A stretch of 32,000 nt of DNA from Microcystis aeruginosa NIES-843 (GCF_000010625.1 NC_010296.1:2790001-2822000), one strand, 5' to 3'; shown: positions 4,388-24,262, numbered from the stretch's first letter. Notes: generated by a model from the sequence alone, not told the origin. Translations and numbers: made by a program.

Positions 4388-4428
4388 ATGCTATTCAACC
4401 TCTGATCACGATAGACGAATTAAACCTC

Positions 4429-4827
4429 ATGAATCAATACCTCGCCGAACTTAGCGAGTACGGTTCGATCACCTTAGAGGATTATCGTACATTAAGAGAA
4501 CGTCAATTAGCCATAGAAAGGTTAATTCAGCTTATCGTTCAAACTGGCATCGATATCAATTACCAGATTTTAAAATGTTTAGATATCGAGTCTCCGAATA
4601 ATGCTCGCGACGCTTTATTTCAAATCGTAGAACTGGGAATTTTAGAAGAACACCTAGCCGTTCAACTGGCCGAGTCTATTAAATTAAGAAACTTACTCGT
4701 ACACCTATACAAGAAAATTGATCCCGATATCGTTCATTCCTCGATCGCTAATATTTTACGAGATTATCCCCGCTACCAACGCTCGATCGTTCAATATCTA
4801 GATTTCTTGGAGGCAGAAAATGGTTAA
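4429..4827 (+). CDS. HepT-type HEPN (DUF86) RNase toxin
   Basis: 132 aa. 'RNLLVHLY' is the R-x4-H-x-Y HEPN motif. Downstream partner of the MNT gene. Confidence 0.8.
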   Translation: MNQYLAELSEYGSITLEDYRTLRERQLAIERLIQLIVQTGIDINYQILKCLDIESPNNARDALFQIVELGILEEHLAVQLAESIKLRNLLVHLYKKIDPDIVHSSIANILRDYPRYQRSIVQYLDFLEAENG

Positions 4828-5278
4828 AAACACGAAAGAATTGAAAATTATCAATACAGTCAATAGAATAACCACGACTGTGGAAAAAATACCGAATTTA
4901 AAACTATTAATTCTCTTCGGTTCTAGAGCGCGTGGAGAGCATAGACCTGATAGCGATTGGGATTTGGCAATTTCACACGATGAAACAAACAGACAAACAC
5001 ATATTAAGGAAATCAGTAATGATTACTTAACTTCTCTCTCTATCTTGAGTGAATTGTTTGAGATAAACCGTGATTTGATCGATCTAATTGAACTTGATCG
5101 CTGTTCTCCATTAATGAAGTATCAAGTCGCACGAGATGGAAAACTTATCTATGAAAAAAATACGGGAGACTTTTTAAAATTTCGTGTACGCGCTTGGAAA
5201 GAGTACGCCGATACCGCTAAATTCCGAAAGATTCAAAAAGACAGTATCGATCTTTGGCTCAAACAATGGGGAGTTTAA
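4820..5278 (+). CDS. MntA-type minimal nucleotidyltransferase, second copy
   Basis: 152 aa. 'LILFGSRARGEHRPDSDWDLAI'. Start overlaps the preceding HEPN stop by 8 nt. Confidence 0.85.
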   Translation: MVKNTKELKIINTVNRITTTVEKIPNLKLLILFGSRARGEHRPDSDWDLAISHDETNRQTHIKEISNDYLTSLSILSELFEINRDLIDLIELDRCSPLMKYQVARDGKLIYEKNTGDFLKFRVRAWKEYADTAKFRKIQKDSIDLWLKQWGV

Positions 5279-5281
5279 ACG

Positions 5282-5716
5282 ATGGAAAGGGAGATAGTCA
5301 CCGTTAGAATTCGTTTGATGATCAAATATCTTAATCGATTACGGGGGTTCGAGAGCGTTACTCTATCAGAGTATTTGGACAATTTTGACTATCAACTTAT
5401 GGTTGAGAGATTGATAGAATTATTGGTAGAGTCATCTTCCGATATTAATAGCTATCTTCTTTTACAATTACATAACGTAACTCCCGCTACCTATTACGAT
5501 TCTTTTATAGAAGCTGGTAAAAATGGTTTAACTACCAGAGAACTAGCCGGGGAGTTGGCGAAATCATCAGGAATGCGAAATCGTTTAGTGCATCAATACG
5601 AGGCGATCGATAATGAACTTGTTTTTAAGGCGATTCCGATCGCTTTATCTCAATTTCCGCTTTATCTCAAACAAATTACCGACTATTTAGACTCTCTAGA
5701 GGTGAAAGATGCCTAA
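5282..5716 (+). CDS. HepT-type HEPN (DUF86) RNase toxin, second copy
   Basis: 144 aa. 'RNRLVHQY' is the R-x4-H-x-Y motif. Follows the MNT gene after 3 nt. Confidence 0.8.
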   Translation: MEREIVTVRIRLMIKYLNRLRGFESVTLSEYLDNFDYQLMVERLIELLVESSSDINSYLLLQLHNVTPATYYDSFIEAGKNGLTTRELAGELAKSSGMRNRLVHQYEAIDNELVFKAIPIALSQFPLYLKQITDYLDSLEVKDA

Positions 5717-6125
5717 AAAACAAAAAAAATTAGAGGAAACGGGACAGTTAAATCTATTCGATAACACTACAGAAATTGACGATGAAGATCTGGATTTTGA
5801 GTTCGAGGATATTGATTTAGAATCTCTTGTTTCCGAAGATTTGGGGATTACTGAATCAGTAAGCGATCGCCGAGTCGAAACCGTTCGCCAACTGCTAACC
5901 CTAAAACTCCTACGGGAGGCGATTCGAGCGGAAAACCCCGACGATCGAGTTATGGCAGATTTTGCCGAAATGGTATTACCCAATTTACTCCGATTAGCGA
6001 TCGGTGTCACGGCAAAAGGAGGAAATTTCTTCGAGGAAATCGATCGCCGTCGGGAATTAGAGGGAAAAAGCAAAGTTCGACAGGAGGAAATTTCTTCGAG
6101 GAAATCGATCGCCGTCGGGAATTAG
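5709..6125 (+). CDS. N-terminal fragment of Cas10d, ending out of frame inside the duplicated 65-mer
   Basis: 138 aa. ATG preceded by GAGGTGAAAG and overlapping the HEPN stop by 8 nt. The tail 'QEEISSRKSIAVGN*' is the second repeat copy read in the wrong frame. Confidence 0.7.
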   Translation: MPKKQKKLEETGQLNLFDNTTEIDDEDLDFEFEDIDLESLVSEDLGITESVSDRRVETVRQLLTLKLLREAIRAENPDDRVMADFAEMVLPNLLRLAIGVTAKGGNFFEEIDRRRELEGKSKVRQEEISSRKSIAVGN

Positions 6126-6146
6126 AGGGAAAAAGCAAAGTTCGAC
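6017..6146 (+). repeat. perfect 2 x 65-bp tandem duplication inside cas10d
   Basis: AGGAGGAAATTTCTTCGAGGAAATCGATCGCCGTCGGGAATTAGAGGGAAAAAGCAAAGTTCGAC occurs at 6017-6081 and again at 6082-6146. 65 mod 3 = 2. Confidence 0.95.
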
Positions 6147-6277
6147 GGGATAACGCGGGCGATCAATCTCTCAATACTCATTTACTTAATGGATTATTTC
6201 CCGCCAATCTCATCGAAAAACGACTAGAAAAACTCAATACTACCGTTCGACGGGTAGTAAAGGAATGCGAGCGCAGG

Positions 6278-9217
6278 TTGGCGATCGCTGGGTTTATTCT
6301 CCACGATTTCGAGAAATTCCGCTACTCGCTTTTTCCCGCGATGCCGGCGAAATATATCGAGATTAACGAGGACTTCGATCGAGATATCCGCAAACTATCA
6401 CGAGAGGAACATCGAGAGATTTTTCAAGTATTGGTTCCCGAATTAGGATTAGATCGCTTTTTATTTTCCGATCAACCAGAAAAATGGACTGAATATCTTG
6501 ATGATTTGATATACATCGCTAAAAATGCCCAGCGTCGGAATGATACCGATCGAAATACCTCGGAAGATGGGTTAAATACTCGCTTAAACAATAGCGCCCT
6601 CGAAAGTTTAACCGATCTTGCCTGTCTAGCCGATCGCCTCGCATCCATTATTAAACACCCCCACGACGCGGAAAAAGCCTCGTTACAAGACCTTTTATAC
6701 AGCCTCAGCGATGGGGAACTAAAATTTACTTACCACAGCATCGCCGAAAACCGCGGGGTACTGACGAACGTACTTAATAACGCGGTGATGGAAGCACATC
6801 AAGAACTAGACTATCAGCCTTTACTTTACTTGCCTACGGGAGTTGTCTATATCGCCCCCAAAAACGCGCCAGAAGTGTCCCTAGAAACCTTACCGAATCG
6901 AGTGGTGGACACGATTAAATCCCTCTGTAGCGGCGAATTACAGCGTAAACAAACGGGATTCGGTAGAGATGGCAAGGGGATGAAATACGCAGATTACTAC
7001 AGCCAATTTTTCGACGATGCCGGGTTAATGCGCGCTGCCCTCAACGCCACCCTTCGCATCCTCGGTGATAATAAAGCGTCCGTGGCCGGAAGTCGCGGCG
7101 AAAACCTGATTAAATTTCAACAACAGGGCGTTTTACCGACGGATTACGATTTTCATTGTGAAGATGATATCCGCATCGATCGCCTAGCGGAATTCGGGGA
7201 CGTGGTGACGCGGAAAATCTGGGGCGATCGCTTGGGAAAAATCGAACAGGCGCGAAAATTGCAGAAAAACTTACCCGCACCGCCGGATTTAGATTTAATT
7301 AGCGAGATCGCGCATTATTGGAATCTAGAAAATTATCTGCCACAAATTCGAGCGATCAAGCGTATTAATGAATCGTTAAAAGAACTCAAACTGAAAGGCA
7401 ATACGGGAGGGGTTCCCTACGAATGGTATTATCTAGCGGCGCAATACCTGAAACAGCATCCCGGAATCGAGGATATTAGACCGGTTGCAGAAGATTTAAT
7501 CGCTTTTCTCGCCGCAAAAATCGCCGCCATAGTTGCGGGATATAACTTACCCGATGGTTGGGAGGATTTGCGAGAGTGGGTTAATCAAGTGGTGCAGTTA
7601 CCCGGTCGGGAATTGGCCCACTCGATCGAAATCTTCCAGAAAGAATTAAACCACTACAACGCCGCTAAAAAACAAGGTCGCGGCCGTCAACTTCTCTGTT
7701 CGATCTCCCATTCTCCCTATAGTGTCAGCGAACAGATGGAATCGGCGGTTCTTTTTACTCCCCAAGTCTATACCAATAAACAAATGCTGGCAGGCTCGAA
7801 CGCCAAACGAAATATTTCCAGTATCGCGGGAACGGAAATGATGTTGCGTCAGATTCTTATGAATCAAACCCAAGCGGTAGGAAAACGTTTCGAGGACGGC
7901 AAATATCGCTATCTGTACTTTTACCCGACCTATTATTTTACTCCCGAAACCAATAGTTTTTTACAAAAAGCCTACGCTAACATCGCTCAAACTCGTTTTG
8001 ATAGCTCGATAAAGTTGCACTTTGTCGATAAGGATCTAGTCGCTAACTTCGATCGAACCCGTTATCAGAGTGTCGATAGTTTCCTGATCGATGAAAAATT
8101 AAGGCAGAAAAAGGAAACAATTAACGAGGAGGAAGATGGCAAAAAAGACCGCACTTTTAAACTATCCTATCCCGAAGATAAACCCCTAACCTTTTATTTT
8201 ATAGCCCTACCTCCGGGCCGCGATCCCACCGATACGGAATCCTGGGTTATGCCAGCATGGTTAGGATTAGCTTTCCCGATGATTCTAGATGTCAAAACGG
8301 TGGTTTCTGAGTCTCCTATTCCTCCCTATCGCGACGGTGCGGAATTTGAAGAGACGGTATTTCTCGACAGTGCGCCCCAAGCGATCCGGTCCTTAACCCG
8401 ATGCGATCGATTCCGTCTCGATCGAGTCTTGAACCCATGGCAAGATAATGACGGAAAAAAATATCCTGCCCCTCTAAATACCCTCACCGCAGCCTATTCT
8501 ATTCATTTAGACGTGAACTCGAAGCAGGGTAAGACGGGTTATGATCCCAATTGGGGCAAATTAACGGAACTCGCTATCAATTTAGAAACCAGTCCTCTCT
8601 ATGTTTTTCATTACCTTAAACAGTGGAAACGGGGCAAAGATGCCGATATACCGAGCGCTAATCGAATCGCTCTGTATCTCTACGATTTTTATCCTTGTTT
8701 CGATCCCTATGTACAAGCCAACCGAACCAATTTAACTATCGATATGACAGCAGAATCGCCCTTAAATCACCCGAAAAACTTAACCGAATTGTATCGTCAA
8801 TTCTATCGAGCTAATAAACGATATAATCCGAAAGCGAACGCAGTTTTAAAACCGATCGATGTGGCCGCCGATACGATTCTCAAAGGAGGAATGTATCAGG
8901 GAGAAGCCCTAGTTTCTGTAGTAGCGGCGGAAGTGGCCAGCTTAATGAATCGGGTTCATGCTTCTACAGCAGAAGGTCGCTGGATTCTATCCGATCGAGA
9001 ACAGGAAAGACAGAAAATATTGTCTTTTGCTCGTTATTTTGTGATCGATGTGTTCGAGGTTTCTTTTAAGGGCGATCGAGCGCGTCTAGCCGGCAGACAA
9101 TTAAACCTTATTCGCGATACCTGCGAATTTCTTTACCGTCTTGAACAGGACAGAGAAAATCAAGAGTTAAAAGCCCAGGGTCAAACTGTGGATGAAGATT
9201 CTGAAAACAATAATTAA
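6278..9217 (+). CDS. cas10d: Cas10d/Csc3 main body (HD domain + large-subunit core); only a TTG start is available
   Basis: 979 aa. 'FILHDFEKF' and 'KHPHDAEK' are HD-type motifs near the N-terminus. Size and position (between cas3' and csc2) fit the I-D large subunit. Confidence 0.85.
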   Translation: MAIAGFILHDFEKFRYSLFPAMPAKYIEINEDFDRDIRKLSREEHREIFQVLVPELGLDRFLFSDQPEKWTEYLDDLIYIAKNAQRRNDTDRNTSEDGLNTRLNNSALESLTDLACLADRLASIIKHPHDAEKASLQDLLYSLSDGELKFTYHSIAENRGVLTNVLNNAVMEAHQELDYQPLLYLPTGVVYIAPKNAPEVSLETLPNRVVDTIKSLCSGELQRKQTGFGRDGKGMKYADYYSQFFDDAGLMRAALNATLRILGDNKASVAGSRGENLIKFQQQGVLPTDYDFHCEDDIRIDRLAEFGDVVTRKIWGDRLGKIEQARKLQKNLPAPPDLDLISEIAHYWNLENYLPQIRAIKRINESLKELKLKGNTGGVPYEWYYLAAQYLKQHPGIEDIRPVAEDLIAFLAAKIAAIVAGYNLPDGWEDLREWVNQVVQLPGRELAHSIEIFQKELNHYNAAKKQGRGRQLLCSISHSPYSVSEQMESAVLFTPQVYTNKQMLAGSNAKRNISSIAGTEMMLRQILMNQTQAVGKRFEDGKYRYLYFYPTYYFTPETNSFLQKAYANIAQTRFDSSIKLHFVDKDLVANFDRTRYQSVDSFLIDEKLRQKKETINEEEDGKKDRTFKLSYPEDKPLTFYFIALPPGRDPTDTESWVMPAWLGLAFPMILDVKTVVSESPIPPYRDGAEFEETVFLDSAPQAIRSLTRCDRFRLDRVLNPWQDNDGKKYPAPLNTLTAAYSIHLDVNSKQGKTGYDPNWGKLTELAINLETSPLYVFHYLKQWKRGKDADIPSANRIALYLYDFYPCFDPYVQANRTNLTIDMTAESPLNHPKNLTELYRQFYRANKRYNPKANAVLKPIDVAADTILKGGMYQGEALVSVVAAEVASLMNRVHASTAEGRWILSDREQERQKILSFARYFVIDVFEVSFKGDRARLAGRQLNLIRDTCEFLYRLEQDRENQELKAQGQTVDEDSENNN

Positions 9218-9234: not shown

Positions 9235-10242
9235 ATGTCTTTACTGAAAACCCTCAATTCTAAATTCTTTCATAGCGAGATTCCCTACAAACCGATGGGA
9301 AAATACGTTCACTTTTTGACGATTCGAGTCACAGAATCCTATCCTTTATTTCAAACAGATGGAGAGCTAAATAAAGCTCGTGTTCGTGCGGGAATTGATA
9401 GCAAAAAAACGATTAGTCGTTTATCGATGTTTAAACGGAAACAGTCAACTCCAGAACGTTTAGTCGGTCGAGAATTACTCAGAAACTACAAATTAATTAC
9501 CGCCGAAGAATGTGAGTACAATGTAAAATTTGCCATGAATAACCCCGACTGTATTATTTATGGTTTTGCCATCGGTGATTCGGGTTCAGAAAAATCGAAA
9601 GTAGTAGTAGATACGGCTTTTTCGATCACACCCTTTGATGAATCCCATGAAAGTTTTACTTTGAACGCTCCCTACGAGAATGGTACTATGGCATCGAAGG
9701 GAGAGAATGACACAAAAGTAGGAGAAGTGACTAGCAGGATTAACCAGCAGGATCACATCCGTCCGCAGGTGTTTTTCCCTAGTATTGTCACGCTCAAAGA
9801 TCCGACAGAAGCAAGTTTTCTCTATGTTTTTAATAACATCCTGCGTACCCGTCACTACGGCGCGCAAACTACCCGGACGGGACGGGTAAGAAATGAGCTT
9901 ATCGGTGTTATTTTTGCCGATGGGGAAATTGTTAGTAATTTGCGCTGGACACAGGCAATATATGATCGCCTTCCCGATGAAGTATTACACTCGATCGATC
10001 CCTTAGACGAGGATTTAGTTATGGAAAAAGCCACCGAAGCAATACAAGAATTAATGGCGGAAGAATTTATCGTTCATACCGATTTTATCGGGGAAAATTT
10101 TCAACCTTTATTAACTGAGGTGAAAACTCTCACGGGTACGGAAGCAGGAATTTTATCGATCTTGAACCAAGCAGATAAAGAAGCGAAAGACTACGCTAAG
10201 AAACATATCGCCGAGAAAAAACCAGCCGCTCAAAAACCGTAA
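9235..10242 (+). CDS. csc2: Csc2 (Cas7d), type I-D backbone subunit
   Basis: 335 aa. 'NNPDCIIYGFAIGDSGSEKSKVVVDTAFSI' and 'GAQTTRTGRVRNELIGVIFADGE' blocks. AAGGAG lies 7 nt upstream of the ATG. Position after cas10d fits. Confidence 0.85.
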   Translation: MSLLKTLNSKFFHSEIPYKPMGKYVHFLTIRVTESYPLFQTDGELNKARVRAGIDSKKTISRLSMFKRKQSTPERLVGRELLRNYKLITAEECEYNVKFAMNNPDCIIYGFAIGDSGSEKSKVVVDTAFSITPFDESHESFTLNAPYENGTMASKGENDTKVGEVTSRINQQDHIRPQVFFPSIVTLKDPTEASFLYVFNNILRTRHYGAQTTRTGRVRNELIGVIFADGEIVSNLRWTQAIYDRLPDEVLHSIDPLDEDLVMEKATEAIQELMAEEFIVHTDFIGENFQPLLTEVKTLTGTEAGILSILNQADKEAKDYAKKHIAEKKPAAQKP

Positions 10243-10297: not shown

Positions 10298-10972
10298 ATG
10301 GTACATATTTATTCCTGTCAATTAGAACTGCACGATAGTCTTTATTACGCAACCCGTGAAATCGGCAGACTCTACGAAAGCGAACCCGTAATTCATAATT
10401 ACGCGCTCTGTTATGCTTTGGGATTGGTAAATAGCGATAGTTATCGTTACTTCTGTTCCGAACAGATTCCCCAGTACCAAGAACATTTAAATCCTCTTAA
10501 CGAAGAGAAAATTTATGTCACTCCCGCACGGGCGATCGTTCATACGGCGGTTCTCAATACTTGGAAATATGCCAATAATAACTATCATGTGGAGATGGAA
10601 AAAACCCAGAAAAATATTCCCAGTTTTGGCAGGGCAAAAGAAATCGCTCCCGAAAGTGTTTTTGAATGTTTTATCATTTCCCATCACCCCCTACAACTTC
10701 CTAAATGGATTCGTTTGGGAAAATGGATGAGTAAAGCGGAAGTAAAACTGACAGAACTTTCCCTATCAAAACAAAAAGAGGATTTATTTATTTATCCCTA
10801 TCCTTTAAATCCTCTCGATGTTATGTTTACCCATCAGGTGATTGGCTACGATGTGATTAATATGCCTCCCGTTAGTTTGATTCGTAATGTGAGAATGCGC
10901 GGGGAATATTACCAAATAAGCGATCGTCCCGATCTGAAAATTCCCGCTCGATTGTCCTATCGCTTCGGTTGA
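10298..10972 (+). CDS. csc1: Csc1 (Cas5d), type I-D
   Basis: 224 aa. Position directly after csc2. Call rests on conserved I-D gene order and size. Confidence 0.75.
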   Translation: MVHIYSCQLELHDSLYYATREIGRLYESEPVIHNYALCYALGLVNSDSYRYFCSEQIPQYQEHLNPLNEEKIYVTPARAIVHTAVLNTWKYANNNYHVEMEKTQKNIPSFGRAKEIAPESVFECFIISHHPLQLPKWIRLGKWMSKAEVKLTELSLSKQKEDLFIYPYPLNPLDVMFTHQVIGYDVINMPPVSLIRNVRMRGEYYQISDRPDLKIPARLSYRFG

Positions 10973-11071: not shown

Positions 11072-11929
11072 TTACCCCGATTCGTACTGTTGACGAGATT
11101 TAAATAAAATTTGTTTGATCCGGTTGCGTAATGGCTCTGGTGTAAGTACAATACAGCGATCTCCGTAGGGTAAAATCTCCCGAATTAACCAAAAAGGACT
11201 AGAGACTTTACGGGTTATAATCCTTTTTCCGTTTACCTCTCGGTCGTCGATATCCCTTGTGTTCCTTTCATAGGCCTTCACGAGGTCTTTTTCTAATTGT
11301 AATTGTACTTCTATAAAATCGAGACTGTCTCGCCATGGTTCTTCGATCGGGATCAGGCTTTGAATACGAGAGAATTTAAGACAGCGATTGTGAACAAGCT
11401 CGGGAAAGTCTCGCCTATCTTCTTCTGGCAGATCGACCGTTTCTTCACACCAGATCTCTAGATAGAATTCTTTTTCCCGAAACATGATCTCGGCAGAGCG
11501 AACGGTAAATTCTAGGGTCTGTCCCTGAGAATTTTTGTACATTACCCGAAAAGCTTGCCGGTCATGGATATAGCGCTCCACCGTGAGCCGCCAATCGCGA
11601 TCGTACTGACTCACCTGTTCGGAAATCTCCCGACGCTCTTGAGGGGAGAGATTTCCTCTCTCTAAAAGAAAATTAGAAAGAGTCTGGGCCGGTTCGATGT
11701 GACCCGATCGCACCAGACGGTCGATCGCTTCCTTGATCGCTTCGACCCGCTTTGCCGAGAGGGTAAAAGGTTCACCGATCTCCAGTTCTCCTTCGGCGAT
11801 GGCGGCGATTAGACCTGACGGACTAGGACTTTTCCCCCAAAAGATGTCAAAGCGTCGGGCGATCGCCTCTAGCTTCTCCTTCGTGCCGGGAGGGATTGAC
11901 AGTGTAATTGTTTCTTTTTTGCGATTCAC
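11072..11929 (-). CDS. second RHH-like + WYL-type regulator, paralogue of 670-1533, divergent from the second effector operon
   Basis: 285 aa with GTG start. 'ITLSIPPGTKEKLEAIARRFD', 'EFYLEIWC...NRCLKFSRIQ', 'FWLIREILPYGDRC' are colinear with the first regulator. Confidence 0.7.
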   Translation of the reverse strand: MNRKKETITLSIPPGTKEKLEAIARRFDIFWGKSPSPSGLIAAIAEGELEIGEPFTLSAKRVEAIKEAIDRLVRSGHIEPAQTLSNFLLERGNLSPQERREISEQVSQYDRDWRLTVERYIHDRQAFRVMYKNSQGQTLEFTVRSAEIMFREKEFYLEIWCEETVDLPEEDRRDFPELVHNRCLKFSRIQSLIPIEEPWRDSLDFIEVQLQLEKDLVKAYERNTRDIDDREVNGKRIITRKVSSPFWLIREILPYGDRCIVLTPEPLRNRIKQILFKSRQQYESG

Positions 11930-11942
11930 CTGAAAAATGTAC

Positions 11943-11971
11943 TTGCAATTCTGGAATATTTGTGCTACAAT
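11943..11971 (+). promoter_or_regulatory. near-consensus promoter P1 (-35 TTGCAA, 17 nt, -10 TACAAT)
   Basis: Hexamers at 11943-11948 and 11966-11971. The -10 is half of a palindrome TACAATA-CCTA-TATTGTA (11966-11983). Confidence 0.5.
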
Positions 11972-12223
11972 ACCTATATTGTAATGATAAATGAGCGCAA
12001 AAAGCTATGGTAAGAGGAAATGAGGGGGATATACCACTGACGATGGTTCTGCGTCCGTGTAACCTTTTGTCGGGAACTCGGAAAATATTGATCAGCATGG
12101 TGTCACCGCCACATCGTTGTGGGGAGTTCAGGCGATCTAAAACGGCAGATATCTGAAGTGAACAAAAGGAGACAGAGTAGTATGGACAACCTCATAGACA
12201 AAGATCGCATATTGCCCTGTCTG

Positions 12224-12320
12224 GCTTCAATCCCTAATAGGGATTCGATGAAAAGGCTAAACAGTAGCCTCACGACTTGTCAGGTTTCAATCCCTCTTAG
12301 TATCAGGGGTTCAGTGATCG
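12224..12320 (-). ncRNA. degenerate two-repeat mini-array (psi-repeat / 23-nt spacer / psi-repeat), CreA/CreR-like crRNA gene
   Basis: Minus strand 12320->12284 ends in AGGGATTGAAAC, 12/12 with the array repeat 3' end. Minus strand 12260->12224 contains CCCTATTAGGGATTGAA (17/17) and matches the repeat at 24/37 overall. The spacer is CTGACAAGTCGTGAGGCTACTGT (12283->12261). Confidence 0.6.
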
Positions 12321-12364
12321 ATCATCTTACCATGATATGCTTAAGAGAATGATTTGCTTTTCCT

Positions 12365-12383
12365 GCCTCAGACTTGTCAGGAC
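12365..12383 (-). promoter_or_regulatory. PAM-flanked partial protospacer for the mini-array spacer, overlapping the P2 -35 box
   Basis: Minus strand reads GTC|CTGACAAGTC|TGAGGC. GTC is a type I-D-compatible PAM. Spacer nt 1-10 match exactly, and nt 12-17 match after a 1-nt bulge. Confidence 0.55.
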
Positions 12384-12402
12384 GTAAACAGTGAGCTATA
12401 TT
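12374..12402 (+). promoter_or_regulatory. promoter P2 (-35 TTGTCA, 17 nt, -10 TATATT) heading the 47-aa ORF and the second effector operon
   Basis: Hexamers at 12374-12379 and 12397-12402, each 5/6 to consensus. Confidence 0.5.
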
Positions 12403-12515
12403 AAAAGAAGCCGTTTTGGGGTCGGCTATCTATAGAAAAATTTATGCACTTGCATTATAGCAAAGCTGACCCCAGATGGATACCCACCTCAATCAAAATA
12501 AAATGGAGGTCAGTA

Positions 12516-12659
12516 ATGCCTGCTTTTGACGATATTTACCAGCAAATCGAAATTATTCAAGACCAAATCGAGCTTCTTCAGTGCCAAATCAAAGAACTGA
12601 GGCAGTCTCCAGTCTTGGATTCTGAAGGCGAAGTCAGAATTTTCGATGATTTAACCTAG
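12516..12659 (+). CDS. 47-aa acidic, heptad-like small protein of unknown function
   Basis: GGAGG at 12505-12509, 6 nt before the ATG at 12516. Product is MPAFDDIYQQIEIIQDQIELLQCQIKELRQSPVLDSEGEVRIFDDLT. The track ORF 12444-12659 is the same frame with an SD-less upstream ATG. Confidence 0.45.
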   Translation: MPAFDDIYQQIEIIQDQIELLQCQIKELRQSPVLDSEGEVRIFDDLT

Positions 12660-12746
12660 AATCCCAGCAATAACGCCTCTAGAGAGCGGAAGTAGGCACT
12701 TTTCAGCCTACTCCCTCAAGATAAGAAATCAAGGAAGGACAGCACT

Positions 12747-15431
12747 ATGTCGATTAAACAACTTTCACTTTTCGAGAATGTTCCTCCAGAGCAAGATACA
12801 AAAGCGGTTACGACTTCGGAAGAGATTAGCGAACTTGAAATTACTATCTTATTGAGTGCTTTGACCGCAAATGCGATCGCTCAAACCGACTCGACATTGA
12901 TTTTCGCTTTAGCTGACGATCCAAGAGCGATGGCGATCGCCAAAACTTTTGATCGTCCTAAATTGGTTAGACAGTTACGACTTTCTCAACCCCAAAAAGA
13001 AAGCGAGTTCATTAAACCCACGTTTCAAGGGAATCAAGTTTTTTATCGAGAACGAGAGATAGGTAGGATACAGCTTGTGTACAAATCACCGTCACCGGGA
13101 GAGCTACAAGCAAAATTAACTCATGAAAGCACGATTGATCGGTTTTTAGAGTTTTTGCAAAAAAAATATCAGATTGTTTCCCTGCATGAAAGTAATTACC
13201 ATGTGCAGATTTTTATTCCACAAACTCAACAATCACATAATATAGAGGAGCTTTGGATAGAATTTATCACGAAAGTTATTTTTTCTATCTATGGTGATTT
13301 TCAATATCAGCTATCAGGATTAATGCAAACTTTTATCACAATGCTAAAAAGTGTTACCTTAGCGGGACGAGGTTTTAGCACCCTAGAAATTCCGATAATT
13401 ACCAGAGATCAAGCCAAGGTGTTAGCGGCTTTTTATTTAGCTATTTTCGAGCAAGTAAAGGATCGCCAAGAGAAGCGTGAGACTGAGATCGTTCAACTTA
13501 TTGAGAAAATTAAATCCGAAGAACTTAACTCGAAAGATTTAGAGTCCACTGAAAAGAAGCTAAAAAGCAGGCAGGAAATGCAAGCTAAAGAGTTTAATAA
13601 ATATAGAGATTATTTTCAGAAAGTTTTGTCTAAATTATTATATGAGCAACGAGCTATTTATCATAAGATAAGAACCCTTGACGAGCAGTTAGGAAAAACT
13701 GGTTTGTCAAAAGCTCAAGTTAGCAAATTACAGAAGCAAAAGGATAAAATAGAGTCACAAATTATTTTTCAGGAAGGATCGATCGAGGAGAAGCAGAGAT
13801 TTCTAGAAGAATCAGACGGAAATCCGTTTGAGTTTATAGAAAAACAAAAACAAACAGATCTATTGAAGCCAATTCAGGTGATCGCTAAATCTTTTAACAA
13901 AACGGCCACAGAACAAATTAACTCGACTCGTGGCGATATTTTCACTCAATGTATATTAGAGATGTATCGTTTGTTAGAAAATCCAAAACTCGAAACCATT
14001 CCAGAACCGCTTTTAACGATTAACCCAAAAATTTTAGCAGCAAGGACAGCGGGAGACGATGGTAAAGATTTTTGTTACTCTTGCGGAGTAACTTTAGATG
14101 CTAAAACTGTGCGGTGGAGAGTAGCTAGATTTATGTTCGAGCGACCGTCTCAACGTCGTCAATCATCCTCTAGTGAAGATAGACCTTTCATTTGCTCTTC
14201 TTGTTCTGTATTATCGTTTGCCTCCCCCTTAAAAGTAACGGATGATAGTATTATCTTACGACTCAAGCCTATTCGAGAAAAATCTGGCTATGATGATAGA
14301 GTTAGATTACATAACCTAAAAGAATACTTGAGAGGATTAACTACTGGTGAACTAGATATTACTGCGGGAAAATATATTATTTTAAATTCTCAAAAAGATA
14401 AAACTAACAATGGTGATATCGCTTCTCAAAAATTAGGATTAAAGCAGTACGCTTTAGCCAAGATCGCTTCTAAACTTCCTTTAGAGGTTCTATCGGATTG
14501 GGAAATCGATTTATATTTACAAAAAAGTACACCAGATAAGCTAGAGCGAAGACAACTAATTTTGCTCAAAGGAATAATGGAGGGATATAATCAAAACATC
14601 ATTATTAAAGATGCTAAAACCCAGGAACAAAAAAATGAACACAAAATAAATCTTAAACTAGGAGACGCTATTCGTTATGTACAACAAGATATGCCTTACT
14701 TGGCGGAATTTATTGTATCTGGAGTTCCCGACTACAATCTCAAATTTGAAAACAAGATATGGTTAGAGAGTATTCGAGAACTCTACTGGAAACAAATCAA
14801 TGAAGACGTGAGAAATCAACAACGATCAAAAGGAGTTTATTCTATGTCAGAAACAACAATGTCTAAAAGAGCTAAAATCTATGAAGATGTAGCTGCATTA
14901 ACAGGCTTACTTTATCCCTTTATAGAATGGGCTGAATTTCTTATAAAAAAGGATAAAGAGATGGAAGAAAAACGGAAGCAAGGAAAAAAAGAACAAGATA
15001 ATTTAGATGAAAAAACTATCGATAAAATTAAAAAAGAAGTTGCCAGAGAAATTAGCAAAATCATCGAAAATGTCAAGGATGAGCATTTTTTCACCTACTA
15101 TGCCTCTATTGGAGATCAAGACCGTACTAAAATCAAAGCCACTCTCAAGCGAGATAGAGACACATATTTTATTTACGATCAAGCCAGAAAGTTAATTTTT
15201 GAAAAGCTTAAAATTTCGGAGGATATAGAAGTAAAAAAAGATGGTATCGCATCGTTAAATCTTACTCTTGACGATATTAAAAATGCTTATACTTATTTTG
15301 CAAATGATCCTCTATATACGGATAAACAAGGAGATAAAAACTGGAGGGACTTCACTTATCGATTAAAACTTTCTCTTTATACGCGGTTTCCTGAATTGGT
15401 TCGTAAACTTTCATCTAAAGGAGATAAATAA
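12747..15431 (+). CDS. HD-less type I large subunit (Cas8/Cas10d-like) with a CxxC...CxxC zinc ribbon and long coiled-coil
   Basis: 894 aa, first gene of a coupled large-subunit/cas7/cas5/cas3 operon. 'FCYSCG...FICSSCS'. N-terminal 'KQLSLFEN' parallels 'GQLNLFDN' of the Cas10d N-fragment. AAGGA lies upstream of the ATG. Confidence 0.6.
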   Translation: MSIKQLSLFENVPPEQDTKAVTTSEEISELEITILLSALTANAIAQTDSTLIFALADDPRAMAIAKTFDRPKLVRQLRLSQPQKESEFIKPTFQGNQVFYREREIGRIQLVYKSPSPGELQAKLTHESTIDRFLEFLQKKYQIVSLHESNYHVQIFIPQTQQSHNIEELWIEFITKVIFSIYGDFQYQLSGLMQTFITMLKSVTLAGRGFSTLEIPIITRDQAKVLAAFYLAIFEQVKDRQEKRETEIVQLIEKIKSEELNSKDLESTEKKLKSRQEMQAKEFNKYRDYFQKVLSKLLYEQRAIYHKIRTLDEQLGKTGLSKAQVSKLQKQKDKIESQIIFQEGSIEEKQRFLEESDGNPFEFIEKQKQTDLLKPIQVIAKSFNKTATEQINSTRGDIFTQCILEMYRLLENPKLETIPEPLLTINPKILAARTAGDDGKDFCYSCGVTLDAKTVRWRVARFMFERPSQRRQSSSSEDRPFICSSCSVLSFASPLKVTDDSIILRLKPIREKSGYDDRVRLHNLKEYLRGLTTGELDITAGKYIILNSQKDKTNNGDIASQKLGLKQYALAKIASKLPLEVLSDWEIDLYLQKSTPDKLERRQLILLKGIMEGYNQNIIIKDAKTQEQKNEHKINLKLGDAIRYVQQDMPYLAEFIVSGVPDYNLKFENKIWLESIRELYWKQINEDVRNQQRSKGVYSMSETTMSKRAKIYEDVAALTGLLYPFIEWAEFLIKKDKEMEEKRKQGKKEQDNLDEKTIDKIKKEVAREISKIIENVKDEHFFTYYASIGDQDRTKIKATLKRDRDTYFIYDQARKLIFEKLKISEDIEVKKDGIASLNLTLDDIKNAYTYFANDPLYTDKQGDKNWRDFTYRLKLSLYTRFPELVRKLSSKGDK

Positions 15432-15433
15432 CG

Positions 15434-16327
15434 ATGGCTACCGAATCTAAAGTGACGACTGGACTACCTAAGACTGATGCTAATAAACCTAGATTGCATT
15501 TTGATATTTATGCCATTCTCGAAGGCTCTCAAGAGCTTTACCTAGGACATGAAGTACAGGTTAATGTTAACTTAGTTGAAATCGTTAAACTGAGTACAAA
15601 AGATGGTAAAGAAATTGAAAAATGTTATATTTCTCCGACCAAACGGCGAGGAGTTGAACGACGTTGTTTACTATGGTCTCCTGTGAAAAGTGGAGAGCTG
15701 CTAGGAGATAAACAAAACTGCGGAATCCCGAAAACCTGTGCTGAACCCACTTGTCCGATTTGTGCTACATTTGGCGCACTCGATCCAGGAAAACGGACTT
15801 TAATCGGTCGGGTAACTCATGGTGGAGGTGTTGCCATACAAGAGATTTACCCAGTCGAAAAACAACGAGCAATGCACCCCGCTTTATTGGTCAATCGCAA
15901 TGATGAAACTCCCACACCTTTTAGACGAGAATACAATCAACCTGGCATTCTCTATCCCGTTTATAACCACGCTCTGAGTATCACCGATCAAGACTTTTCA
16001 GCTGTGGCTTATGCTTTCTTAGATTCATTACCTCGCATAGGTTCAGGAAATCCGAAAGGAATTGCTATCGCGGAAACGGACGATCGTACCCCGCTTCTGG
16101 TTTTGGATAGATATTTGTCTCCTAGAGGGAAGCGTCCAATCGTTTCTCCCTCGGAAACCGACCCGCAAAAGGCGATCAATGATTTCCTTTATTTGGCACT
16201 GTATCCTGAAACTAATTTCACTAATCATATTCAAGAAGCGCACTTCGATCGCTGGATAGGCAATGAAGCGTTAGCCAAATTGCAAGAATACTCCGCAATA
16301 TTCGTCGATACAGTTTTACAAGCATAA
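15434..16327 (+). CDS. cas7: Cas7-like (Csc2-related) backbone subunit
   Basis: 297 aa, starting 2 nt after the upstream stop. 'TCPICATFGAL' aligns with Csc2 'PDCIIYGFAIG'. 'LSITDQDFSAVAYAFLDSLPRIG' aligns with Csc2 'VTLKDPTEASFLYVFNNILRTRHYG'. Confidence 0.6.
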   Translation: MATESKVTTGLPKTDANKPRLHFDIYAILEGSQELYLGHEVQVNVNLVEIVKLSTKDGKEIEKCYISPTKRRGVERRCLLWSPVKSGELLGDKQNCGIPKTCAEPTCPICATFGALDPGKRTLIGRVTHGGGVAIQEIYPVEKQRAMHPALLVNRNDETPTPFRREYNQPGILYPVYNHALSITDQDFSAVAYAFLDSLPRIGSGNPKGIAIAETDDRTPLLVLDRYLSPRGKRPIVSPSETDPQKAINDFLYLALYPETNFTNHIQEAHFDRWIGNEALAKLQEYSAIFVDTVLQA

Positions 16328-16330
16328 ATC

Positions 16331-17155
16331 ATGTATTGCCTGACCTTTAAGATTATCCCAACGGCGGCGATGACATTTCGCATACTGCCTGGATCGATTC
16401 TCAATATCGCCACCTATCCCTTCGTCCCACCGACTACTTTTTCTGGGTTTCTCCGACGGATAGTAATGTTAAGCGAGGGATTAGATATCCCTGAAACCAG
16501 CATTAACAAGGAAAATCCGCCTTATTTCACCCTACCTCGTCAGTATATAGCGTTAGGAGCCTATCCAGTCCTAGATAAATGGTCTGGAGTCCATCGTACT
16601 CATCGCAAAGGAACTCGATCGTTTAACCATGATGTTTTTTCTAGACTATACATTGATGGCGATCGAGAAAACTTTCAGTTACACACTTGGGAATATTTTA
16701 TCGCTGAGGAGTTAATCGGCTATGTTGTAAGCGAATCTAAGTCCAGTCTAGAGGCATTTTCTAACCTACAAGGAGTCGGATGTAAAATTGGTAAGGAAGG
16801 ATTTGCGGTGATTGACGAGGTATCTGAATCTATACGACTCCAAAGAAAGATTCTTTCCGCTCACCCGTCAACTGTTGTTCCCATGGAAGCTTTAATACAG
16901 CGAAATCCTTGTATCAATCGTTGTGATATTTATAATCTCTATCGTCATGAATGGTCAGCAGATCAGACTCAAGATGAAGATAAGGGATTGTTCGATACAG
17001 AGCGATCTCCTATTAATGGTTTTATCCCCTTTGTTGCCGCTTACTATCCCGAAAAAGCCAATCCTTTACCCACTTTAGATTTCTATACGGATGGAAATCT
17101 TCAGATTCCTGTAGCACTTGTGGAACTTTTACAAGGAGAATCAATTAATGTCTAA
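16331..17155 (+). CDS. cas5: Cas5-like subunit
   Basis: 274 aa. N-terminus 'FRILPGSILNIATYPFVPPTTFSGFLRR' fits the Cas5 RAMP N-terminal pattern. Position between the cas7-like and cas3 genes. Confidence 0.55.
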   Translation: MYCLTFKIIPTAAMTFRILPGSILNIATYPFVPPTTFSGFLRRIVMLSEGLDIPETSINKENPPYFTLPRQYIALGAYPVLDKWSGVHRTHRKGTRSFNHDVFSRLYIDGDRENFQLHTWEYFIAEELIGYVVSESKSSLEAFSNLQGVGCKIGKEGFAVIDEVSESIRLQRKILSAHPSTVVPMEALIQRNPCINRCDIYNLYRHEWSADQTQDEDKGLFDTERSPINGFIPFVAAYYPEKANPLPTLDFYTDGNLQIPVALVELLQGESINV

Positions 17156-19871
17156 ATCTAACCCTCAACCTTTTTTCAAATTCGGCCGCGTGTTTTTTCC
17201 AGGCGAACCTACAATTGCTCCTGATAAAATTCTTTTTCAACCCCTGGGTAATCATGTAGGTAATGTTAGACAATTAGCTAGAAAATGGCAAGATGGCAAC
17301 TTTTCTTTAGAACGAGTTATTGAAGGAATCAATTTACACGACAAAGCTAAACCACAAACTTTCAAAATTCGCGTTGAAACTAATAAACAGGGAGAGTTTA
17401 CAAAATATACTTATTCATTTAAAGGGCATCGATTTAAAGTAGATGAACCACAAAATCTTTGGGTGCAGGCTCTAGCAAGAGGACATCATGACTATTCAAC
17501 TAAGGAAATTATCAAGGATACCTATCAATTAAAAAAAGATCCTAAATATCAGAAGATTTTCTCTAAAGACCCCTTACAATACGCCAAAGAACTTTATATT
17601 TTGGAAATGTGCGATCAAATTGAAGCGGAATTAGCTTGTCGTGTCATTGGAGACGACGAACAGGCAAAATCTCGCACATTTATGGATTTTACAATAACTA
17701 AAGGTACATCCGAAGATAGCAACCACCGTGTTTTTTATCTCGATCCCTATCCTTTTAAAGAACCAACTATCACTTTAAATTTTCGTTCGTGGACATATAA
17801 CTTGTCAGACGAGGATAAAAATCAACTCCAACAATTACGCGAAAACGGAAAAGATAAGGAATTAGGAGGTAAATTGAATACTCTTGTTAAAGAGTGGTGG
17901 AAAAAAAACGAACATACAATCAGTGAAGATAGAGCAATTACTGCCATTATCAAACCTGATAATTCAAACACTTATTCCCCATCAGAAAAATCAGAAAATG
18001 CAATTTTGTGGTGGTATAGAGAATTAGCGAATTTTCAACCTAATCCAATGCAGGAGCAAGTCTTTCAAACGATGGTTGAAAACAAACATCCAGCTTTTAT
18101 ACTTAAAGCTCCTACAGGAGTGGGAAAATTTGAAGCGATTATTATTCCCTTTTTAGCTATGCTATCTACAAAAGAAGATAGACCTCGCCTGATTATACCC
18201 CTACCTGCACGAAGTTTGTTAGAAGATCAAAAACAGAGATGCGATAAATATTTAAAACAATTTTCACTCCTACACAAAGGACGTGAAGTGTCTTTGGTGA
18301 TAGATACAGGAACCGAAATGAATCGATATGTTTATCTAGATGGAGAAATTAAATCTAGCAATAATTCTCGAAGACATTTATACAAAGGAGATATTATTTT
18401 AACAACGATTGATAAATTTATATATCGATACTTTGGCTATGGTGATAAGCAAAAATCATTCATCTTTCCCTATCGAATTTATCATGGTAATACACTGATT
18501 TGTTTTGATGAAGCTCATACCTATGATGATATTTCGTTTACTAACTTTTGCAGTTTGGTTAAAGCTTTGTATGAAGCAGGACGCTCGCTTGTTTTAATGA
18601 CGGCAACTTTATCACAAAATCATCTGGAAAGATTCGATTATCTTGCGGATAACATGATCGATTACATTGATGTTCAGGACAATCTAGAGAAGCTAAATAA
18701 TTTTTATCAGCAAATTTTGAAGCAAGACTATTCTAATTTAAAACAGTTTGAATGGGTTGATGATATTGTTTATGATGTAAAAGAACCAACAAATTTACAA
18801 CAAAAGTTGACCTCGATAGCCCTTGCAGAATGGAACTCTAACCCAAGCCATCGTATCATTGTTTCTGTAGAAACTGTTAAAGATGCCATAGCAATTTATG
18901 AAAAAATAAAACAGAAATTAAACATTAAATCTTCAGGACAAAATGAATTTTTATTTCTCTACCATGGTCGTTTGTCAGATATTCCCAAAACTTCCCATTA
19001 TTCTCGCACCAATCTTTATAAAAGATTAAAAGAGAGAGATGAAAATGACCAAGCTTATATTCTGGTTACTACCAGTGCGATCGAAGTTGGTTGTGATTTA
19101 AATAGTACCCGTTTGATTACTCAACTGTGTAACCCAGAAAGTTTAATTCAACGAGCGGGACGTTGCAATCGTAAAGGTAATGTTGAAGATGCAAAAATCA
19201 TTGTTATTGGCAATAATATTCCTGAATTTATTAATACTTTAAGCGAGGCAGAGCTAGAGGATTATAAAACAATTCTTAAGGGTTTGCACGCTCGAAACTT
19301 TGATCCGAAAGCGATCATGAATTGTGTTTCTACAAAACAGAAAATTGATGATTATCGAGTTGTTGAGCTTTTTTCCCTGTTGCAAGACTATGTTTATAAT
19401 GCCGATCTCACTTGTCAATCTGCTCATGAAAAAGGATTAGTAATCACCCGTAGCTGGACTCCATCCGTTACCTTGGTATATGATGACGGTAAGCAGGGTG
19501 ATAGTTTAGAAAAAATTGTCAAAGAATCTCCTCAAATTCAAGTCCCCATTGATCGTTTAATCAATAATGAAGGAAATTACACAAATCAATACGCTAATGT
19601 GTCTGTGTACGAATGGATTTACGACAAGGAAGAAACTCGATATAAGTTAGAACCTTTAAAATATTGGGGATGTGCATACAGTAAAGACATGGTGATCAAA
19701 GTCTGTGCAGTTCAGGAGGGAGCCATATATGATCATGAATTAGGGTTTAAAGACTTGCCTAGAGTTTTTATTAAATGCAGATCAAATGGCTATCAAGAAA
19801 GACTTCGGTATAACCCCACAGAAGATAGATCAGTAGTGATTAATTACACTTCTGCTCTAACACAAGATTGA
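17148..19871 (+). CDS. cas3: Cas3 with fused N-terminal HD nuclease and SF2 DEAH helicase
   Basis: ATG at 17148, with AAGGAG 9 nt upstream, overlaps the cas5-like stop by 8 nt. HD motifs: 'NLHDKAKP', 'RGHHDYS'. Helicase motifs: 'APTGVGKF', 'CFDEAH', 'MTATL', 'TSAIEVGCDL', 'QRAGRCNRKG'. Confidence 0.85.
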   Translation: MSKSNPQPFFKFGRVFFPGEPTIAPDKILFQPLGNHVGNVRQLARKWQDGNFSLERVIEGINLHDKAKPQTFKIRVETNKQGEFTKYTYSFKGHRFKVDEPQNLWVQALARGHHDYSTKEIIKDTYQLKKDPKYQKIFSKDPLQYAKELYILEMCDQIEAELACRVIGDDEQAKSRTFMDFTITKGTSEDSNHRVFYLDPYPFKEPTITLNFRSWTYNLSDEDKNQLQQLRENGKDKELGGKLNTLVKEWWKKNEHTISEDRAITAIIKPDNSNTYSPSEKSENAILWWYRELANFQPNPMQEQVFQTMVENKHPAFILKAPTGVGKFEAIIIPFLAMLSTKEDRPRLIIPLPARSLLEDQKQRCDKYLKQFSLLHKGREVSLVIDTGTEMNRYVYLDGEIKSSNNSRRHLYKGDIILTTIDKFIYRYFGYGDKQKSFIFPYRIYHGNTLICFDEAHTYDDISFTNFCSLVKALYEAGRSLVLMTATLSQNHLERFDYLADNMIDYIDVQDNLEKLNNFYQQILKQDYSNLKQFEWVDDIVYDVKEPTNLQQKLTSIALAEWNSNPSHRIIVSVETVKDAIAIYEKIKQKLNIKSSGQNEFLFLYHGRLSDIPKTSHYSRTNLYKRLKERDENDQAYILVTTSAIEVGCDLNSTRLITQLCNPESLIQRAGRCNRKGNVEDAKIIVIGNNIPEFINTLSEAELEDYKTILKGLHARNFDPKAIMNCVSTKQKIDDYRVVELFSLLQDYVYNADLTCQSAHEKGLVITRSWTPSVTLVYDDGKQGDSLEKIVKESPQIQVPIDRLINNEGNYTNQYANVSVYEWIYDKEETRYKLEPLKYWGCAYSKDMVIKVCAVQEGAIYDHELGFKDLPRVFIKCRSNGYQERLRYNPTEDRSVVINYTSALTQD

Positions 19872-19915: not shown

Positions 19916-19993
19916 ACCATGACTCTTATCTCCTCTAAATCCCTCACTTTACCGGAATTTTTCTCACTAACCGCTCCCGATGGCGATATTACC
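19916..19993 (+). repeat. right 78-bp direct repeat bracketing the cargo
   Basis: 74/78 identical to 10979-11056. Confidence 0.9.
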
Positions 19994-20485
19994 TATGAAT
20001 TAGTCGATGGAGAAGCGATCCCAAAAATGTCACCGAAATTCTTTCATTCTCGTTTAACTCTGGCTTTATCTTCTATACTCGATCGCTGGAATCAAGGACG
20101 GGGAGAAGTGGGAATCGAATGGGCGATCATTCTCAGCAAAAACGATCGAGATTGGTGTCCGGTTCCCGATCTTCTCTACATTTCCCCGGAAAGGTTAGGA
20201 GATATTCCCCTCACCGATGAAGCTTGTCCCGTTCCCCCGGAATTAGTCATCGAAATTATCTCTCCGGAACAATCTTTCAGCAGCCTGAGCGAAAAAGCCG
20301 TGGACTACCTAAAAGCGGGAGTCAGTCGTATCTGGATCGTCGATCCCCGGGCCAAGCAGATCACAATTTTCTATCCCGATGCACCCCCGGCGATTAAAAA
20401 AGGCGATGACGAAATTAGCGATATTCTCCTCCCCGATTTAACCCTAACCCCCAGACAAATTTTTGCCAAGGCCCGATTAAGTTAA
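19919..20485 (+). CDS. Uma2-family (DUF820) PD-(D/E)xK endonuclease, copy B
   Basis: 188 aa. 'YELVDGEAIPKMSP', 'PDLLYIS', 'PELVIEIISP', 'AGVSRIWIVDP'. Confidence 0.8.
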   Translation: MTLISSKSLTLPEFFSLTAPDGDITYELVDGEAIPKMSPKFFHSRLTLALSSILDRWNQGRGEVGIEWAIILSKNDRDWCPVPDLLYISPERLGDIPLTDEACPVPPELVIEIISPEQSFSSLSEKAVDYLKAGVSRIWIVDPRAKQITIFYPDAPPAIKKGDDEISDILLPDLTLTPRQIFAKARLS

Positions 20486-20576
20486 TGCCCTACAGTCTCG
20501 TTCTCAATCTCACCCCTCGATCGCCGATCTATCCGAATTTTCTCACCGGACGACACCTTCAGGCGCTATTCCTTAC
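20485..20576 (+). pseudogene. cas6: 5' fragment of cas6 (92 bp), duplicated
   Basis: 90/92 identical to 21811-21902. Its ATG overlaps the uma2 stop (TAATG). Similarity ends at ...CCTTAC. Confidence 0.9.
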
Positions 20577-20994: not shown

Positions 20995-21003
20995 AAATTG
21001 ACT

Positions 21004-21807: not shown

Positions 21808-21810
21808 TTA

Positions 21811-22644: not shown

Positions 22645-22646
22645 CC

Positions 22647-23240: not shown

Positions 23241-23245
23241 AAAAT

Positions 23246-24250: not shown

Positions 24251-24262
24251 ATAGAGGCGGTC

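Follow-up and report, generated by a model that had tools for sequence, protein, structure and literature searches.

CreR mini-arrays have been tested experimentally for CRISPR subtypes I-B, I-E and V-A, and look-alikes have been noted for I-D and other subtypes (10.1101/2023.03.10.532045). In the CreTA systems of haloarchaeal type I-B loci, a mini-array RNA directs the effector complex Cascade to the promoter that drives a small gene beside it; the CreA of Haloarcula also represses the cas8 promoter (10.1101/2023.03.10.532045). The survey of Shmakov et al. 2023 found mini-arrays in 12-15% of loci, with enrichment in composite loci (10.1101/2023.03.03.530964), and among the viral Cracr/Racr RNAs some regulatory versions, whose spacers are shortened by 12 nt, form complexes that have two fewer Cas7 subunits (10.1101/2024.10.29.618823; PMC10651486). 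Here an element of this kind was examined in a 32,000-nt stretch of the genome of Microcystis aeruginosa NIES-843 (NC_010296.1:2790001-2822000; GCF_000010625.1), hereafter the window, in which positions are counted from the first letter. The element lies between a WYL-domain regulator gene and cas8b, and is probably a CreR-type regulatory mini-array of a cyanobacterial type I-B module, autorepressing the promoter (P2) of that module.

Like the CreR elements of Liu et al. 2023, the Microcystis element has two degenerate repeats, the first with the 5' handle and the second with a hairpin; its identity to the target is confined to the end next to the protospacer-adjacent motif (PAM), a GTC that fits the I-D rule stands at the PAM position, and the target takes in or adjoins the -35 box of the promoter that serves the effector genes. 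It also occupies an intergenic site just upstream of the effector genes, where it is predicted to bring about autorepression without cleavage. It differs from them in belonging to a cyanobacterial I-B variant that stands in tandem with I-D effector genes and has cas6, adaptation module and array in common with them, in an operon that opens with a conserved open reading frame (ORF) of 47 amino acids, and in a 10-nt match followed by a conserved 1-nt offset and GAGGC. That Cascade would be guided to the promoter of a neighbouring small gene within a I-B locus is a predicted likeness to CreTA, but CreT is a small toxic RNA, whereas the small gene here encodes a conserved acidic protein and is apparently part of the cas8b operon. 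The mini-arrays of Shmakov et al. are likewise repeat-like pairs in long cas intergenic regions, with seed matches of at least 10 nt to PAM-flanked sites in cas promoters; the enrichment in composite loci is a further parallel, as is the toxin-antitoxin cargo between cas3 and cas10d of type I-D (here at 3968-5716). In that survey, however, the I-D mini-arrays are placed between cas3 and cas10d, and those of I-B in the surroundings of cas6, whereas the present one lies between the WYL gene and cas8b; the survey text names no cyanobacterial genus. Viral Cracr/Racr RNAs are repeat-bearing small RNAs that load into Cas effectors, as is predicted here, and the Microcystis unit likewise falls 12 nt short of the array period, but they serve phage-encoded counter-defence, whereas this element is chromosomal and aimed at its own operon. 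The CreR class is already described, and the Microcystis case extends it to bloom-forming cyanobacteria.

Re-reading of the minus strand returned every coordinate and sequence that the initial annotation had given for the repeat relics, spacer and target (Table 1). The first relic, psiR1, keeps AGGGATTGAAAC exactly at 12295->12284; it has a hairpin of CCCT (12308-12305) and AGGG (12295-12292) around a 9-nt loop, with a predicted 4-bp stem of -5.3 kcal/mol, followed by an exact 8-nt 5'-handle, ATTGAAAC, at 12291-12284. The second, psiR2, contains CCCTATTAGGG and ATTGAAGC, and its predicted fold has a stem of 6-7 bp with a 3-nt loop. The same pattern, in which psiR1 keeps the 5'-handle and psiR2 keeps the hairpin and 3' handle, recurs in the four other lineages discussed below. 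The 23-nt length of the intervening spacer is nominal, as the 5' 17 nt of psiR2 do not align to the repeat. Within the spacer, an internal hairpin (GAGGCUA/UAGCCUU) is predicted in Microcystis and Planktothricoides, and not clearly in Symploca.

Repeat-like sequence is scarce elsewhere in the window. With up to one mismatch, AGGGATTGAAAC has 103 sites, namely 100 in the main array, the two relics and one inside cas10d, against a chance expectation of 0.28, and a short-word BLAST search of the 37-nt repeat against the sequence outside the array returned only the two relics below E = 0.5. No second mini-array serving the I-D genes was found in the window outside 12224-12295 by 12-mer count and BLAST, nor was one found beside the MntA/HepT pairs (3968-5716) by short-word BLAST of the 37-nt repeat. 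An Rfam scan of 11800-12800 gave nothing besides a sub-threshold match of CRISPR-DR5 to psiR2 (28.3 bits; gathering score 40). The possibility of a canonical immune array was rejected: just the 3' 12-19 nt of each repeat are left, the repeat-to-repeat period is, as the initial annotation had it, 60 nt rather than the 70-77 nt of the 100-repeat array (where the normal spacer length is 32-40 nt), and the sole target match is the mini-array's own promoter, not foreign sequence.

The spacer and target sites are 97 bp apart. Its positions 1-10 (12380-12371) equal the spacer start exactly, and GAGGC matches after a 1-nt offset, so that the 10-nt seed match next to GTC that had been proposed is borne out at 10 of 10 nt, with later positions out of register. 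The sequence CTGACAAGTC occurs exactly twice in 32 kb, both times on the minus strand, where 0.00 occurrences are expected; other seed targets in the window (GTN, at most two mismatches) were limited to chance-level sites at 22236 and 676. P2, too, held up as proposed: a promoter scan ranked it as the best sigma-70-like site in 11800-12800, and the target covers its -35 box, which is the reverse complement of seed positions 2-7. By position and orientation, P2 directs the 47-amino-acid ORF and cas8b-cas7b-cas5b-cas3. The match is on the spacer's own strand and immediately 3' of GTC, a geometry proper to a type I system. The GTC next to the target fits the type I-D PAM, which is GTN/GTH (PMC10212523), and the adaptation module of a stand-alone relative in Picosynechococcus is of the cas1d type. 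Comparison of the 99 array spacers, joined by N runs, with 50,697 phage records gave no match and hence no PAM, and a whole-array search of the phage records picked up phage-borne repeats alone.

The same cassette, consisting of a minus-strand WYL gene, a minus-strand mini-array, a plus-strand promoter, the small ORF and cas8b, is present in four further lineages, Symploca (L022), Planktothricoides (L025) and the metagenomic L030 and L048, in which Cas8b is 47-53% identical to that of the window. At E <= 1e-10 this Cas8b family comprises 280 proteins. The spacer start and the target are GAGAAAGCGCGAGAGGC and GAGAAAGCGATGAGGC in Symploca, with PAM GTT, and, with PAM GTC in each case, GAGAAAGCACCAGAGGC and GAGAATGCAATGAGGC in L030, TGCTAATCAAGGGAGGT and TGCTATCAATGAGGT in Planktothricoides, and GAATTGGCAAATGAGGC and GAATTGCAATGAGGC in L048. 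The seeds are unrelated between lineages (GAGAAAGCG, TGCTA.TCAA, GAGAA.GCA, GAATT.GCAA), yet every one of them finds its match beside a GTT or GTC in the promoter region of its own locus. G:G at position 9 in Symploca is A:A in L030. In L022, L025 and L030 the scan placed promoters across the PAM or the seed. When guide positions 1-11 of 14 distinct spacer/target pairs were treated as a duplex with the target strand, 77.9% of cells were paired (58.7 +/- 2.5 in shuffles; 0 of 500 reached the observed value) and 10 of 11 positions had changed on both sides (5.1 +/- 1.5 in shuffles; again 0 of 500), whereas sliding the register by 1-3 columns lowered the paired cells to 23-42%. An alignment of homologous cassettes had been suggested as a check of the initial annotation, and in all five lineages spacer and target co-vary with GTN kept, which supports its CreA/CreR-like reading of a seed that pairs with the -35 region of P2. 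This co-variation is the decisive new evidence for the predicted pairing. It also offers a series of natural mutants for working out the seed rules of a I-B Cascade; no characterization of the I-B Cascade of this variant was found in the literature searched.

Table 1. Features of the window in order of position; (-) and (+) denote the strand.
Feature	Position	Strand	Remarks
WYL gene	670-1533	(-)	
I-D cas3'	1633-3798		
Two tandem MntA/HepT pairs	3968-5716		type VII toxin-antitoxin; between I-D cas3' and cas10d
cas10d	5709-9217		I-D large subunit, split
csc2	9235-10242		
csc1	10298-10972		
WYL/WCX-domain regulator gene	11072-11929	(-)	divergent from P2; Pfam WCX 6.7e-8, PADLOC WYL 5.5e-14
Mini-array	12320-12224	(-)	
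psiR2, second repeat relic	12224..12260	(-)	conserved 3' part CCCTATTAGGGATTGAAGC at 12242-12224
Spacer-like CTGACAAGTCGTGAGGCTACTGT	12261..12283	(-)	seed 12283-12274
psiR1, first repeat relic	12284..12320	(-)	12-mer count, BLAST, fold
Candidate extended -10, TGgTAAGAT	12324..12332 (12332->12324)	(-)	by eye
Target CTGACAAGTC-TGAGGC	12365..12380	(-)	full site with GTC, 12383->12365
Promoter P2, TTGTCA-17-TATATT	12374..12402	(+)	10/12 matches
PAM GTC	12381..12383	(-)	directly 5' of target on the spacer-like strand
Structured P2 leader	12415..12476	(+)	13-bp stem, TTTGGGGTCGGCT (12415-12427) / AGCTGACCCCAGA (12464-12476)
47-amino-acid ORF	12516-12659	(+)	first gene behind P2
Type I-B interference genes, overall	12747-19871	(+)	PADLOC Cas8b, Cas7b, Cas5b, Cas3 models
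cas8b	12747-15431	(+)	PADLOC Cas8b, E = 0
cas7b	15434-16327	(+)	PADLOC Cas7b, 2e-139
cas5b	16331-17155	(+)	PADLOC Cas5b, 7e-133
cas3	17118-19871	(+)	PADLOC Cas3 models; Pfam and NCBIfam Cas3 helicase matches
Two paralogous Uma2-family genes	19919-20485 and 20998-21570		between I-B cas3 and cas6
cas6	21811-22644	(+)	sole copy in window; NCBIfam TIGR01877, 5.5e-19
cas6, cas4, cas1, cas2, then array	21811-24535		
Main array	24769 to window end	(+)	100 copies of GTTCCAATTAATCTTAAACCCTATTAGGGATTGAAAC, 70-77 nt spacing

The operon behind P2, which the initial annotation had called the second effector operon, is by PADLOC a type I-B interference module with cas8b, cas7b, cas5b and cas3 in one operon. 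Symploca and Planktothricoides have the cassette in I-B loci that stand alone, without I-D genes in the vicinity, and Picosynechococcus plasmids carry complete stand-alone systems (WYL, cas8b-7-5-3-cas6-cas4-cas1d-cas2). The Microcystis psiR2 has GAATCCCT, in common with other genera, where the resident repeat has AAACCCT. Because of this sequence and the stand-alone occurrence, the mini-array is, to judge from its distribution, an old part of the I-B module and not a decayed piece of the resident array. The I-D complex, the module's own complex or both had been proposed as users of the RNA; the I-B complex is the likelier of the two and the I-D complex less likely, and autorepression by I-B Cascade would be the most economical reading. 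In the window, cas10d contains a perfect tandem duplication of 65 bp (6017-6081 = 6082-6146) that shifts its frame and leaves the N-terminal ~140 codons in an ORF at 5709-6125 and the remainder at 6278-9217 from a TTG start; removal of one 65-bp copy restores an uninterrupted ORF of 1147 amino acids. Either the I-D effector is crippled or the duplication is an artefact of assembly, and the frameshift, if real, makes the I-D complex an even less likely user.

Signals for transcription of the mini-array differ among the lineages. In Microcystis, the minus-strand -10 candidate put forward initially (TATCAT, 12337->12332) did not stand, being GATCAT in several haplotypes; a candidate extended -10, TGgTAAGAT, is invariant in 17 Microcystis haplotypes (nucleotide diversity, pi, of 0) and would start transcription a few nucleotides upstream of the psiR1 hairpin. 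By eye, a -10 box was seen in all four non-Microcystis lineages, at the equivalent place in Planktothricoides (TTGGTATAAT), Symploca (TATAAT) and L030 (TATATAAT), for example. The scan called an intrinsic terminator directly after psiR2 in three of these four (L022, L025 and L048), in which the terminator after psiR2 and the -10 box before psiR1 mark the mini-arrays as self-contained small-RNA genes, as far as sequence can define them.

From the anatomy, the PAM, the promoter overlap, the conservation of the cassette and the co-variation of spacer and target, which are established directly, we infer transcription, Cas6 processing and repression, as follows. A short minus-strand RNA would be made from the extended -10 promoter and cut by Cas6 at both repeat relics, giving a guide with the handle AUUGAAAC followed by the seed CUGACAAGUC. 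This guide RNA would be taken up by a Cascade, most likely by the I-B complex whose genes come next downstream; that Cascade would read the GTC PAM and pair over about 10 nt, possibly with GAGGC in addition, across the -35 box of P2. RNA polymerase would be blocked, and the R-loop would remain incomplete, so that Cas3 would not be licensed to cut. The predicted outcome is negative feedback on the 47-amino-acid ORF and the cas8b-cas7b-cas5b-cas3 operon, which would loosen when abundant CRISPR RNAs (crRNAs) titrate Cascade or when Cascade is inhibited. At this locus two different effector complexes, I-D and I-B, depend on a single Cas6, a single adaptation module and a single 100-spacer array; the amount of the second effector could then be set by a repressor RNA in competition with crRNAs for Cascade.

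The pairing beyond the seed follows a pattern that is repeated among lineages and that no current model calls for. In all five, the target has a base less than the guide at position 11/12, and guide and target share an identical GAGGY at guide positions 13-17; the targets of Planktothricoides and L048 are also without the base opposite position 6, and positions 7-10 match in the shifted register although the two seeds are unrelated. Counted over positions 1-5, 7-10 and 13-17, a view that was fitted to the data, 14 of 14 positions match in the window, Planktothricoides and L048, and 13 of 14 in Symploca and L030. Cascade flips out every sixth guide base, and in Escherichia coli 5 bp plus the PAM suffice for association, with more than 18 bp needed for interference (PMC5904413). 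It is possible, though doubtful, that pairing continues across the skipped positions in 5-nt segments, with targets that lack the base opposite flipped-out positions; alternatively, the target indels may simply cap the R-loop. If register skipping did occur, Cascade would bind stably over three segments while a complete R-loop and the licensing of Cas3 would be geometrically impossible, so that the complex would bind but never cut by a route other than simple 3' mismatching.

Variation within Microcystis was assessed from 28 loci, retrieved by searches that started from Cas8b, from the small ORF and from a conserved 20-mer, which represent 17 distinct intergenic sequences and 13 spacer/target haplotypes. 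Pi is 0 for the PAM GTC and for the extended -10, and 0.016 for psiR1. Seed positions 1-11 are the most variable part of both spacer (0.166) and target (0.226), against 0.085 in the rest of the intergenic region. Positions 1, 3, 10 and 11 vary among haplotypes, with paired states of C:C or G:G at position 1 and of C:C, G:G or A:A at position 10.

Several of these observations, and others, count against autorepression through this RNA. The perfect 10-nt seed is confined to the haplotype of the window and L013; most Microcystis haplotypes have spacer C against target A at position 3, some also mismatch at position 5 or 6, and in L040/L044 a GTC-type spacer faces a CTG-type target, with mismatches at 1, 3 and 5. 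Given the relatedness of the Microcystis haplotypes and the short distance between the two sites, the within-species association could in part be linkage. In Planktothricoides and L048 the ungapped match is just 5 nt. The Microcystis mini-array is the weakest version, with no terminator and a psiR1 hairpin weakened by its 9-nt loop; promoter and terminator scans found neither a -35 box nor a terminator for it and left the extended -10 uncalled, the last because there is no good -35. GTC/GTT, the presumed PAM of the cognate I-B variant, was judged against the I-D rule. In E. coli, moreover, short-seed binding of Cascade had no detectable effect on transcription (PMC5904413). Confidence in CreR-type autorepression is limited because seeds are imperfect in many Microcystis strains and because the RNA and its binding are inferred.

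The small ORF behind P2 bears on a rival role for the element. The encoded 47-amino-acid protein is acidic and is kept as a protein in all five mini-array lineages; AlphaFold2 predicts a helix (residues 4-29) and a beta-hairpin with a mean pLDDT of 90, and searches of Pfam, NCBIfam-style, PADLOC and PHROGs models, of PDB sequences, and of PDB structures with Foldseek gave generic coiled-coil or insignificant matches. Mini-array and ORF co-occur perfectly, as both are present in five lineages and neither in the relatives from Snowella, Nostoc, Picosynechococcus and Microcoleus, in which the WYL-cas8b spacers measure 88-242 nt. Such co-occurrence would suit a CreTA-like safeguard, in which the ORF would be the gene chiefly regulated and would encode a toxin or growth arrester, and the mini-array RNA would act as a Cascade-dependent antitoxin; the molecular steps would be those of CreR-type repression and the biological role would differ, with loss or inhibition of Cascade (by an anti-CRISPR, for example) releasing the toxin. 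CreTA cassettes are known in I-B loci, and the retention of the ORF as protein and its structured leader, in which RNAalifold of Microcystis, Symploca and L030 found a conserved stem whose two compensatory pairs set Microcystis apart from the Symploca group, are in keeping with this proposal. The predicted protein is, however, soluble-looking with no toxin-family match, and the ORF lies apparently in the cas8b operon, 87 nt upstream of cas8b, so that derepression would raise Cascade too; a safeguard of this kind is judged unlikely.

Three minor features were noted in and around the small ORF. The 3' arm of the leader stem could instead pair, by eye, with the invariant Shine-Dalgarno region GGAGGTCAGT (12504-12518), which suggests possible translational control of the small ORF. 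Some Microcystis small ORFs have 54 amino acids, with an extra heptad (ERLQDQI-like) in the helix, which points to a putative coiled coil of strain-variable length. The 87-nt gap between the small ORF and cas8b (12660-12746) contains a hairpin, GTAGGC...GCCTAC, seen by eye in Symploca also, with wobble changes; it does not look like an obvious terminator, as no T-run follows it.

Less probable still is that the element is a non-functional relic, a decayed self-targeting repeat-spacer unit whose similarity to the promoter is left-over homology. The degenerate repeats and the indel in the spacer/target pair could be read in this way, as could the mismatched seeds of many Microcystis haplotypes, including the one broken at three positions, and the want of a terminator or strong promoter in Microcystis. 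Against decay stands a cassette that has been kept in five lineages with Cas8b about 50% identical, with seeds that have fully turned over and still match, a PAM kept in all five and a terminator of its own in three; within Microcystis, the PAM, the handle and the -10 are the least variable parts of the intergenic region.

It is very improbable that the two sites are direct copies of an operator for a protein such as the divergent WYL regulator and that the likeness of spacer and protospacer is coincidental. GAGGC/T is invariant in both copies in all lineages, an invariance that pairing alone does not need, and the WYL regulator gene always adjoins; the variable 10 nt, on the other hand, co-vary base for base, which an operator model does not predict, in every lineage one copy abuts the handle ATTGAAAC and the other abuts GTN, and the TAGCCTCA motif is missing from WYL-cas8b spacers without a mini-array. 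A better operator candidate is another conserved element, TACTTGCA, seen by eye near the WYL start in most loci. This element (AATGTACTTGCAAT in both Microcystis and Symploca), at ~11937-11951 in the window, directly precedes the start of the WYL gene in most of the related loci compared, which include L022, L023, L025, L027 and L030, whether or not they have a mini-array; it may be a WYL operator or else part of the WYL promoter.

Hardly credible, and rejected, is a plus-strand protein of 59 amino acids (12183-12362, with AAGGAG upstream) to which the repeat-like sequences would be incidental: its frame is open in 16 of 17 Microcystis haplotypes, but divergence among these is too low for openness to inform, the Shine-Dalgarno sequence is AAGTAG in L001, every amino-acid difference falls on variable spacer/repeat positions, and the equivalent Symploca frame has, by eye, a TGA stop.

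Mini-arrays of the host repeat were also observed in phages of Microcystis. MaMV-CH01 (PP681321.1, ~40317-40446; L045 411-523) carries two repeats, 37/37 identical to those of the host, behind a TTGACA...TATAAT promoter, and the 39-nt "spacer" between them is an inverted copy of that promoter region; Ma-LMM01 (NC_008562.1, 35762-35941; L046 ~402-580) carries three repeats ending in GAAAA, and MaMV-DH01 (L047) has a mini-array as well. These are candidate RNA anti-CRISPRs or viral crRNA-like regulators. Matches of their seeds to host promoters in the window were at chance level (three seen, ~0.4 expected by our own estimate), and two of the three are one duplicated 12-mer. Phage mini-arrays with the same repeat would be a plausible selective reason for the seed/target diversity of Microcystis.

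The neighbourhood of the mini-array is that of a composite locus. The I-D genes (cas3', cas10d, csc2 and csc1) and the I-B module stand in tandem, each with a divergent WYL gene of its own, and use one cas6, one adaptation module and one array; the single cas6 presumably supplies the enzyme that processes main array and mini-array alike. The WYL/WCX gene, whose start is ~300 nt downstream of the mini-array on the same strand, flanks cas8b in every related locus examined. The tandem of I-D and I-B is also found in Microcystis L004 and in a Nostoc genome (L027), in the latter without a mini-array. The interval between cas3' and cas10d, which holds the MntA/HepT pairs, is a cargo hotspot according to Shmakov et al. 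(bioRxiv 10.1101/2023.03.03.530964). Between I-B cas3 and cas6 there is a tandem repeat of 34 nt x 4 at 21629-21769, and the 12-mer TTAATGCCCTAC lies across the cas6 start codon (21808-21819) with a second copy at 20482-20493, which suggests a putative duplication-insertion event.

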